Assembly: GCA_051531975.1 (NCBI GenBank)
Contig: JAOPTT010000004.1
Location: 6,674-70,673, forward strand
DNA length: 64,000 nucleotides
Direction: 5' to 3'
Source: Spirochaetaceae bacterium
GTDB lineage: Bacteria; Spirochaetota; Spirochaetia; DSM-2461
Shown in pieces: positions 30,001 through 33,000 of the stretch. Position numbers: made by a program. Position 1 is the first letter of the stretch, and each line of letters starts with the position of its first letter.

Positions 30001-33000
30001 AAATAGAAGAAGATGCAGAATTATTAGCTCTATTAACTCCTTATGCTGACAAAGTTGATGCAGTTTTAAGTGAAGTTATTGGTAATGCTACTGACGTTTT
30101 CTTAAACGATGATACTAGAAGAATGGAAACTGCTTTAGGTGACATTGTTACAGATTCGCAGATCTGGTTCTTAAAAGAGATGGGAATGGATATTGATTTT
30201 GCATTCCAAAATGGTGGTGGAATTAGAGCTACTTTAGGAAATGGAGAAATCCAGAAACAGACAGTATACGAAGTACTTCCATTTGATAACTCTATAGCAA
30301 TGGTTACTATGAAAGGTTCTGATGTTATAGCTCTATTTGACCAAGCTGCAGGTAATATTGGAGCAGGATCTATGGCTCAGGTTTCTAAAGAAGTTAAAGT
30401 AACTTTTAATGCTGAAGCTAAAACTGTTGAATCATTATATATTAATGGAAGCCCAGTTGATACTGATGAAGAGTATAATATTGCTGTTAACTCATACTTA
30501 GCTTCTGGTGGAGACGGATATAAAGTATTTAAAAAAGCTACTTATTATTACGATTCTTCATTAATGCAAAGAGACGCATTTATTGATTATGTTATATCTT
30601 TAGGTGGAGACATTACTCCAGCTACAGATGGTAGAATAACAATTAAATAGATTGTAGACATTTTTCCCCCTTGGTATACTATGTTAGTTCCAAGGGGGAA
30701 TCATGGAATTTAGACCGTGTATAGATATTCATAATGGCAAAGTAAAACAGATTGTTGGTAGTACTTTAACCGATGGTTTAGAAATGCCCGCCGAGAACTT
30801 TGTAAGTACTCAAACCTCAAGTTTCTATTCAGAACTTTATAAACAATATAACCTAAAAGGTGGCCATATAATAAAATTAGGCCCAAATAATGACTCCGCA
30901 GCAATAAGTGCATTAAAAGCATGGCCAGATGGATTACAGATTGGTGGCGGTATAAATCCTAATAATGCAAAACAGTATTTAGATGTCGGTGCTAGCCATG
31001 TAATCGTTACTTCTTATGTCTTTAAAGATGGTTTGGTTAATTTAGATAACCTCAAAGAGCTTGTAGATTCTGTAGGACCAAATAAACTGGTTTTAGATCT
31101 TAGCTGCAAAAAAAAAGATGATGAATATTATATTGTAACTGACCGATGGCAAAAATGGACAAGTGTTAAGATAAACAGAGAAACGTTAGAGCTTTTAGGT
31201 GGGTATTGTGATGAGATATTAGTTCATGCAGCATCTGTAGAAGGTAAAATGATGGGGCCGGACCTAGATCTTGTTAAAATTTTAGCACAGTTCTCTCCAG
31301 TACCAACAACATATGCAGGTGGTATAACTACAATAAATGACTTAGAAGATATTAGAGATTGTGGAAAAAATATTATTAACATAACTGTAGGATCTGCTTT
31401 AGATATTTTTGGTGGTAAACTTTCATTTTCTGAAGTTATTAACTTTTGTAAAAACAGTTAAACTAAGATTGAATTTATTAGAGCTTAGATAAAATATCCA
31501 CATATTCACTTTTCAAATAGTTCCATGTAATTGTATTTAAATCTGGTAATGTACTCTTTTGATTGAACATCGTTATTATTTTTTTTGCCATATCTTCAGG
31601 GGAATTATCATATAGATAAGGTTTAGGAAACCATTCTGGATAACTTAGTCTATTTGGAACAATTGGGATTGCTCCGTATTGAACTGCCTCCATAACTGCT
31701 AGACCTTGGAATTCATGAATTGCAGTAGATACAATTAACTCACCTTTACTTAACCAGGAGATATAATCTTCTTTAGATTGTTGACCCCAGCATAGAATGT
31801 TTTGGCTAAAATTACTTTTTATTTTATCAAAGACCCTAGGTGAGTTTTTAAATTGTATCCCCATCATTATCAATTTAAAGTCTATATTGTTCTCTTCTAA
31901 TATTTTCAGGGTCTTATAATAGTCCTCTGGATTCTTATCGTATTCCCATCGGTGGTTCCATATTAGACTATTTTTTATTTTTGGAGTTATAGTTGTTGCT
32001 TTATCACAAATTGGAACCGGAATAATAGTACTCTTATTCCTTATTTTCTCTAATATAGAAACTGGGCTATGGTCATTTATTTTTCTAAGTAGTTTGTGAC
32101 CACCGCTGAAAAAACTATCTCGGTTATATTTACTATTAAAGACTACTCTGTCTGCACAAAATGCTCCGTATAGATTAACCATCATAGATTCAACATTTGA
32201 ATGATTTTTATCGTCAGAAAGTGGATACTCAAATTGGTTTTCATGGAAGTAGATAACTTTGTTTGCACATCCTAAATGTGGGAAGAGACCTATTATAGTC
32301 GATAAATCAACCATAGATGTAGCTAATATAGTATCGTATGTTGAGCCTAGCTCTTTACTGTTTTCTGCCATCCAGCTCAGAGGGTTTCCTCTAATTCTCC
32401 ACGAGAACTTTCTTGGGGGAAGCTCTAAAAATACCCAATCATGTTCTGGTAGATTTTTTATCAGAAACTGGCCCCAATAATTGTGACTTTGAGTATTATA
32501 TGCAGATAATAACAGTATTTTCATGTGGTTATTTTTTTAACCGTTTCATAAAAAGAGCCAGGACAACAAATGTTCCTACAGATATTAATCCAGGAACAAG
32601 CCAAAAAAGCTCAAAGTTTATAACGCCATTTATCATAACTCTGTTTGCAAAGATTCCAGCCATAAAGTTACCTAAAAACCCTGCAACTCCCGCATAAATT
32701 AATGTATGAATTTGATGTAAACTACCTCTTGAATTTATATCTGTAAAATTATCTAAATATATAGTTGATCCAACATAAAATAGCGCAAAGATAAAACCGT
32801 GTAGTGAAATCCCAAAATAAGTTAACAATAACGGCCCATTAAACCAGAATATTGTATATCTTGCTATTTGTAATATAAGGGACAATAAAAAAATCTTTTT
32901 AAACCCTAGTTTTTTAATAATTGGAGCCAATGCAAATAACATAATAATTTCTGGAAATTGACCAAAAGACATTATCATTGGAATATTATTTTGAGATGTC

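Follow-up and report, generated by a model that had tools for sequence, protein, structure and literature searches.

We identified, in the 64-kb window (the whole stretch of DNA that was analysed), a gene for a bacterial homologue of the animal tRNA-queuosine mannosyltransferase QTMAN, and we think it fairly probable that the encoded putative enzyme glycosylates, and probably mannosylates, queuosine at position 34 (Q34) of tRNA. Our prediction is that bacteria, too, probably coat queuosine with sugar. The activity, donor, acceptor and target tRNA of the enzyme are predicted here from the fold, motifs, supplying genes and gene context, which the analysis showed. Indirect support for a queuosine acceptor comes from conserved residues of the acceptor domain, the stand-alone context of the gene, its co-occurrence with ManC and the presence of a sister family in deazaguanine clusters of phages. 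According to the available text of the sources, animal QTMAN is the tRNA-Asp queuosine-34 α-mannosyltransferase (10.64898/2026.06.28.735034; PMC12518689) and acts on the allylic hydroxyl of queuosine (PMC12518689), and sugar-modified queuosine has been described in animals, vertebrates among them, and glutamyl-queuosine in bacteria only (PMC10690763, PMC12518689).

The gene lies at 31478..32524 on the reverse strand, contains no internal stop in its 348 codons and encodes a GT-B glycosyltransferase (GT4-type, retaining) of the QTMAN/GTDC1 family, bacterial subfamily A. Pfam matches and conserved columns delimit an N-terminal, putatively acceptor-binding QTMAN_N domain (aa 2-172; 32009..32521, reverse strand) and a C-terminal, putatively donor-binding domain (aa 184-323; 31556..31975, reverse strand). 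QTMAN_N matched from end to end (model positions 1-168 of 168; E 1.8e-53, 181 bits against a cut-off of 25) and Glycos_transf_1 (PF00534) matched with E 6.5e-9, which bears out the genome-wide survey's note that the 348-aa product is a whole-length QTMAN/GTDC1 homologue; no family for the protein was found in NCBIfam. In GT-B enzymes the N-terminal domain is the acceptor-binding side, and here it carries S13-H14, W42-R43-x-R45, YxHENQxxYP (92-101) and FNS (129-131). The C-terminal domain carries WxHRWExDK (189-197) and E271-x7-E279; its donor role and the label EX7E for E271/E279 are what we assume from GT4 enzymes. The protein has full-length PF12038, PF00534, the GT-B fold, EX7E and the HENQ, FNS and HRWExDK motifs by which we recognise the family. 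Within the 64-kb window, Rfam gave no matches, promoter and terminator scans returned results at chance level, and no GC anomaly was found. The RNA contigs of one metatranscriptome (X2) reached neither the QTMAN gene nor most genes around it and so weigh on neither side.

An AlphaFold2 model of the protein, built from a 110-sequence alignment, showed the GT-B fold with a pLDDT of 96.4. Its structural neighbours were GT4-like retaining enzymes at 9-18% identity, the best being sucrose-phosphate synthase (Z 31.0, rmsd 2.5, 321 aligned), and a phmmer search of PDB sequences gave no match. Fructose-6-P, malate, inositol phosphates, pterins and lipids are the substrates of these neighbours, a range that favours reading the window protein as an ordinary GT4-type enzyme with some unrelated acceptor (small molecule, lipid or protein), the tRNA role having arisen only in eukaryotes. 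We consider this unlikely. The N-terminal domain shows a mean identity of 31% to animal QTMANs, far above the 9-18% to any solved GT-B enzyme, and such conservation is unusual among GT4 enzymes with different acceptors.

The likeness to animal QTMAN (GTDC1) extends over both domains: the window protein is 32% identical to the macaque protein in aa 1-172 and 40% identical in aa 187-316, and 76 of the 154 columns invariant among 25 animals were matched. Of 42 core columns, defined by conservation of at least 90% in the 25 animals and at least 80% in both bacterial subfamilies (72 B and 128 A rows), 41 are kept in the window protein; 18 of the 42 fall within the acceptor domain. The two enzymes also share the QTMAN_N plus GT1 architecture, EX7E, the HRWExDK loop and a single-copy gene. 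They differ in an inter-domain insert of about 110 aa, present in the macaque protein and absent from the window protein, and in the host, which is here a bacterium whose tRNA-Asp has A38. They also differ in the first loop, which reads EPFYGGSH in animals and SAY..SH in the window protein: subfamily A as a whole has SAYxxxSH at this place, together with W38>F and an altered RDxxYG segment, and the window protein has this form instead of the animal one. Because the Gly-Gly of the first loop and RDxxYG are replaced in subfamily A, exact isofunction can be proposed more safely for subfamily B, and the remodelled loop also speaks for an unrelated acceptor.

One further substitution, P150>N at a position otherwise 95% conserved, could point to a recently acquired copy that is inactive or unexpressed. 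This is hardly probable at all, because every other core residue is intact, many intact homologues exist at 60-72% identity, and a relative (G021) keeps its QTMAN gene in the same position beside hisA. In the window, hisA (TIGR02129 type; 30703..31461, forward strand) is the convergent downstream neighbour and is functionally unlinked.

Judged by gene content, the host is able to make both Q34-tRNA and GDP-mannose. Its genome encodes Tgt, QueA, QueH and two Vut_1 importers, one of them preceded by a PreQ1 riboswitch (RF00522), and QueC was not found in it; we thereby recovered the Q-gene list and the absence of QueC given in the earlier note. A ManC-type domain is also present. Genes for tRNAs with GUN anticodons comprise tRNA-Asp, -Asn, -His and -Tyr, including two for tRNA-Asp(GUC), and the tRNA-Asp anticodon loop reads CUGUCAA. 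According to the available text of 10.64898/2026.06.28.735034, human queuosine mannosylation is independent of m5C38, and A38 would therefore not necessarily stand in the way in the host. For GluQ-RS, no match in the host genome exceeded the cut-off, the matches being full-length synthetases below it. With the Q pathway, ManC and tRNA-Asp present and GluQ-RS not found, the proposed reaction is possible in the host and would meet no GluQ competitor. Salvage-only queuosine metabolism is not special to this genome, QueA being present in 38 of 38 genomes of the order. By a rough count, GAU makes up 83% of the Asp codons.

Upstream of the QTMAN gene, 4 nt away and co-directional, lies a gene for an MFS transporter of the NupG/XapB-like family (32529..33707, reverse strand; Pfam Nuc_H_symport, 185 bits), and the two are possibly co-transcribed, a linkage seen at genus level only. 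The earlier note had described a NupG-type symporter 5 nt away; orientation and Pfam family stand, the spacing is 4 nt, and the TIGR00889 score of 149 bits is below the cut-off of 446. The short gap and the salvage-only metabolism of the host would suit a role in which free queuosine or queuine, or a preQ precursor, is imported by the adjacent symporter and glycosylated for storage or salvage. We hold this to be quite improbable. Among all QTMAN loci compared, a homologue of this MFS gene was found only in those of the host and G021, where it is separated from the QTMAN gene of G021 by one for a PLP decarboxylase, so the functional link to a nucleoside symporter proposed earlier is given up. 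The score below the nucleoside-permease cut-off and the basic/aromatic W-R-x-R patch, common to the tRNA-acting animal enzyme, argue in the same direction.

We then considered the wider genomic context of the family. The Pfam scan took in 80 genome loci, with 124 immediate neighbours, and 6 neighbours from spirochaetes; the NCBIfam scan took in 12 phylum loci and 80 metagenome loci, from which 156 neighbours were selected and 150 scanned (of an initial 152, 6 were dropped and 4 others added). QTMAN genes are surrounded by shuffled housekeeping genes, and neither scan found a Q gene as immediate neighbour; the lack of a conserved Q-gene neighbour counts in favour of an unrelated acceptor. queA lies 3-10 kb from QTMAN in only 8 loci (L072, L107-L111, L170 and L216), which is weak evidence. 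Proximity in the order QTMAN-trpS-tRNA-Leu-queA-tgt carries little weight, since L072 and L107-L111 represent the synteny of one lineage, and RsmB-type, mnmG, U32/trhP-like, rluA, efp and mnmE genes were set aside as linked neighbours because of their sporadic occurrence. Glycan clusters are missing as a context, which argues against an unrelated acceptor. A second GT4-like gene was present in 3 of 219 QTMAN loci and in none of the 100 loci of at least 11 kb; of the host's 14 GT4-like genes, by comparison, 7 have another within 6 kb (the control profile was built from the host's own genes, which favours this contrast). The window gene does not lie in a cell-envelope glycan cluster. Glycosyltransferase neighbours were seen in four loci (L049, L184, L198 and L222), and manC-manB is divergent from the QTMAN gene in one (L089).

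QTMAN homology in bacteria is not new, and the window gene is an ordinary member of a catalogued family with 3227 proteins at E<=0.001 and 742 clusters (50% identity) at E<=1e-30. Automatic NCBI and UniRef names for its relatives are DUF3524 or 'tRNA-queuosine alpha-mannosyltransferase domain-containing'; such names are homology transfer, and the window protein is a typical subfamily A member with no essential difference from the proteins so named. The closest named relative is that of Thiospirochaeta perfilievii (69% identity). In the host's order, 25 of 38 genomes carry the family, that is, 24 of 37 relatives do; the earlier note had it widespread in the order, as it is, with a lower count of 21 of 37. 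It was further found in 14 of 351 genomes of the spirochaete phylum sample, 105 of 251 in one gammaproteobacterial order (that of genome G038), 9 of 10 in a small phylum (that of genome G041) and none of 14 control genomes, and a search of the plasmid collection yielded no member. This spread over several phyla agrees with the caveat, made before, that the family is not special to the host. Carriers nearly always have a single copy.

Trees of 225 rows (FastTree) and 51 rows (IQ-TREE) separated bacterial subfamilies A and B with an SH-aLRT of 100. Subfamily A (SAY..SH) is mostly gammaproteobacterial, and subfamily B (EPFYGGSH) comprises Desulfobacterales, most spirochaetes, Planctomycetota, Omnitrophota and others; with rooting at the midpoint, the animal QTMANs are on the B side. 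The window gene and its G021 counterpart belong to subfamily A and are nested among gammaproteobacterial sequences, while the other 23 relatives in the order belong to subfamily B (the tree assigns 21 of them, and motifs the 2 that are truncated) and mostly adjoin pgm/pmm, HAD, sigma-factor or RsmB-type genes. Treating the copies of the order as one lineage, as had been done, is therefore not supported. The tree suggests that the window gene probably entered the genus laterally from a gammaproteobacterial-type source; lateral acquisition is the simplest reading.

We also compared carriers and non-carriers for the genes that would supply the reaction (carrier, GluQ-RS and QueG/QueH counts were tallied by hand from tables). 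QueA is near-universal (38/38 in the order, 245/251 in the gammaproteobacterial order and 345/351 in the phylum sample), so its co-occurrence cannot discriminate carriers from non-carriers. QueG or QueH was found in 22 of 25 carriers versus 12 of 13 non-carriers of the host's order; the misses fall in fragmented MAGs, and many QueG matches in this survey were below the cut-off. Seven carriers, all MAGs, had no tgt and/or queA match (G038, G232, G078, G644, G651, G652 and G646), a point against the queuosine reading. In G644, G651 and G652, 3 of the 9 carriers in the phylum of G041, yajC is missing as well, so we put the missing tgt down to assembly gaps; contig edges cut the tgt match of G078 and the tgt contig of G646. 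G038 and G232 are not accounted for in this way: both have yajC, although in related loci this gene is not linked to queA-tgt.

ManC was enriched in carriers of the gammaproteobacterial order (99/105 versus 108/146 in non-carriers; Fisher p 2e-5, size-stratified p 0.002, among genomes that are related and kin that are not independent), so GDP-mannose is favoured as the donor. Six carriers lacked a ManC match, and two of them (G152 and G252) have motif-degenerate QTMAN copies. In the same order, where subfamily A dominates, GluQ-RS was found in 103 of 105 carriers and 138 of 146 non-carriers, and mutual exclusion of QTMAN and GluQ-RS was accordingly discarded. GluQ-RS (YadB), the glutamyl-Q34 tRNA-Asp synthetase, resembles QTMAN in hypermodifying the allylic hydroxyl of queuosine, which it acylates according to the available text of PMC10690763. 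It differs in its labile glutamate ester and its unrelated fold, and it was not found in the host but coexists with QTMAN in Gammaproteobacteria. Since the same hydroxyl is used, this coexistence speaks against subfamily A simply repeating the animal reaction on one tRNA, or else implies competition or another GUN tRNA; it also lends weight to an unrelated acceptor.

In the preferred reading, mannosylation of Q34, Vut_1 would import preQ1, and Tgt, QueA and QueH would build Q34. The C-terminal domain of the window enzyme would bind GDP-mannose via R192, K197 and E279, the W42/R43/R45 patch and the HENQ..YP pocket would let the enzyme close over the anticodon loop, and mannose would be moved with retention to a cyclopentene hydroxyl; these residue roles we assume by analogy with GT4 enzymes. 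The likely effects would be on GAU/GAC decoding or nuclease protection. Bacterial anticodon nucleases against Q-tRNAs exist, for example colicin E5. By analogy with human tRNA-Asp, for which the available text of 10.64898/2026.06.28.735034 reports nuclease shielding by the sugar, a sugar on bacterial queuosine may shield the anticodon.

Glycosylated queuosine in bacteria, if true, would matter to the tRNA-modification field: bacterial mannosyl-queuosine would overturn the split between animal sugar and bacterial glutamyl forms and would suggest that an animal tRNA writer came from bacteria. Structural work on human QTMAN, which has no close PDB sequence, would also gain an enzyme that is compact and free of the insert. 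In the literature searched, at title and abstract level and with most subscription papers outside the search, we found no study of a bacterial QTMAN, and none came up under DUF3524, PF12038, NOG87805 or the full name of the enzyme.

A sister family of glycosyltransferases (GTs) in phages bears on the acceptor from another side. With the window protein, 5 of 50,697 phage records matched, all of one lineage, and a viral scan gave no match; the subfamily-B alignment matched one IMG/VR contig. The top viral structural match of the window model was the GT of phage ACP17. All 10 phage loci inspected have folE, queD, queE, queC or dpdA-like genes within 5 kb of the GT. Loci L225, L234 and L237 contain folE, queC or gat-queC, an oxidoreductase, the GT, a dpdA-like gene, parB and terminase, and L231 contains gat-queC, a deacetylase, the GT and an oxidoreductase (L225 and L231 were scanned against families, L234 and L237 read by eye); the others are those of BCSR5, ACP17, Phosso, PAC2 (PA5oct group), BUCT-ZZ01 and X1. 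These loci resemble the described phage 7-deazaguanine DNA-modification clusters (FolE/QueD/QueE/(Gat-)QueC/DpdA; PMC6884629), whose substrate, unlike that of QTMAN, is DNA. The word 'glycosyl' is absent from the available text of PMC6884629, that of 10.1101/2023.04.13.536721 yielded no sugar-bearing base, and that of PMC7824862 describes a deazaguanine system in PA5oct without linking a GT to it.

Profile comparisons tie the two families together. The QTMAN profile scored phage GTs at 54-84 bits versus at most 44 for the host's other GT4s, the phage GT profile gave the window gene 93 bits, against 22 for the second-best ORF in the host genome, and HH alignments covered both domains (302-305 columns, probability 99.7-99.8). 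The HRW..DK loop is present in 4 of 10 phage GTs. In a quick tree with a small outgroup and long outgroup branches, QTMAN and the phage GTs grouped against 8 host GT4s with an SH-aLRT of 99, and bacterial and animal QTMANs formed a clade against the 10 phage GTs and 8 host GT4s with an SH-aLRT of 96. This is independent evidence that the QTMAN/phage lineage works on 7-deazaguanine nucleotides, not specifically on Q34: the phage enzymes presumably modify DNA bases that lack a cyclopentene ring and therefore support 'deazaguanine' rather than 'Q34'. Their presence in deazaguanine clusters in 10 of 10 loci also argues against an unrelated acceptor. Since the phage GTs adjoin dpdA-like genes and probably modify DNA, the window enzyme might likewise glycosylate 7-deazaguanine in DNA; we regard this as very improbable, given that cellular members are not beside dpd or que genes, group with the animal tRNA enzyme (support 96) and are missing from the plasmid collection.

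Besides Q34 mannosylation in the host, we put forward a wider reading only tentatively, as one that could well be wrong. QTMAN and the phage GTs may together be a single ancient '7-deazaguanine glycosyltransferase' lineage, mannosyl-queuosine may be present in the tRNA of many bacteria (105/251 and 25/38 genomes), the animal enzyme may derive from bacterial subfamily B, and cultured phages (the Pseudomonas PA5oct group, Acidovorax ACP17, Xanthomonas X1 and PhiXhv) may have an undescribed glycosylated deazaguanine in their DNA. The literature searched, with most subscription papers outside the search, showed no study of such a base in phage DNA. In the ESM Atlas, further viral clusters and some bacterial ones lie near the phage GT family.

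In bacterial genomes, the QTMAN family was found in 9 of the 10 genomes of the small phylum of G041, one of the compared genomes (G644-G652; compact, 2.1-3.2 Mb), and its retention across this phylum is like that of a core gene. Within the spirochaete order, a gene for an RsmB/F-type m5C methyltransferase directly followed subfamily-B QTMAN in 5 of 25 loci (L005, L007, L008, L020 and L025).

A GT-B family sister to QTMAN was observed in several phage lineages, inside 7-deazaguanine DNA-modification clusters (L225:170-5809, L234:1952-11648, L237:85-4625, L231:6360-10446, and loci L233 and L263-L267); a Gfo/Idh/MocA-type oxidoreductase was encoded alongside it in four loci. 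Cultured phages with this enzyme include the PA5oct group, ACP17, X1, Phosso and BUCT-ZZ01. The prediction is that a sugar-carrying deazaguanine occurs in DNA.

Degenerate QTMAN copies (HENP, HRWG) were carried by genomes G152 and G252 (L114:7130-8221 and L115:7354-8454), where searches for ManC and GluQ-RS found neither; decay or an altered donor is possible. The N-domain of the G572 copy (L254:7041-8681) was split by an in-frame insert, giving an open frame of 559 aa with two separate QTMAN_N matches, and the animal QTMAN of Lineus longissimus (P0426) had an extra PF05773 domain.

Near the QTMAN gene, the window encodes a hisA (30703-31461, + strand; 346 bits, above cut-off) of the TIGR02129 'hisA_euk' type, not the TIGR00007 type usual in bacteria, and a fusion chemoreceptor with domains of the MCP signal, zinc-binding CZB and hemerythrin types (33781-35793, + strand). 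Elsewhere in the window, a 499-aa protein (27414-28913, + strand), whose synteny is kept in the relative G021, had zero matches in Pfam and NCBIfam; it contains an 'FHVRPSS' stretch that may be HPr-like. A tandem paralogue pair (22309-24345, - strand), read by eye, encodes putative cyclophilin-FKBP fusion PPIases, one with a signal-like peptide at its N-terminus.
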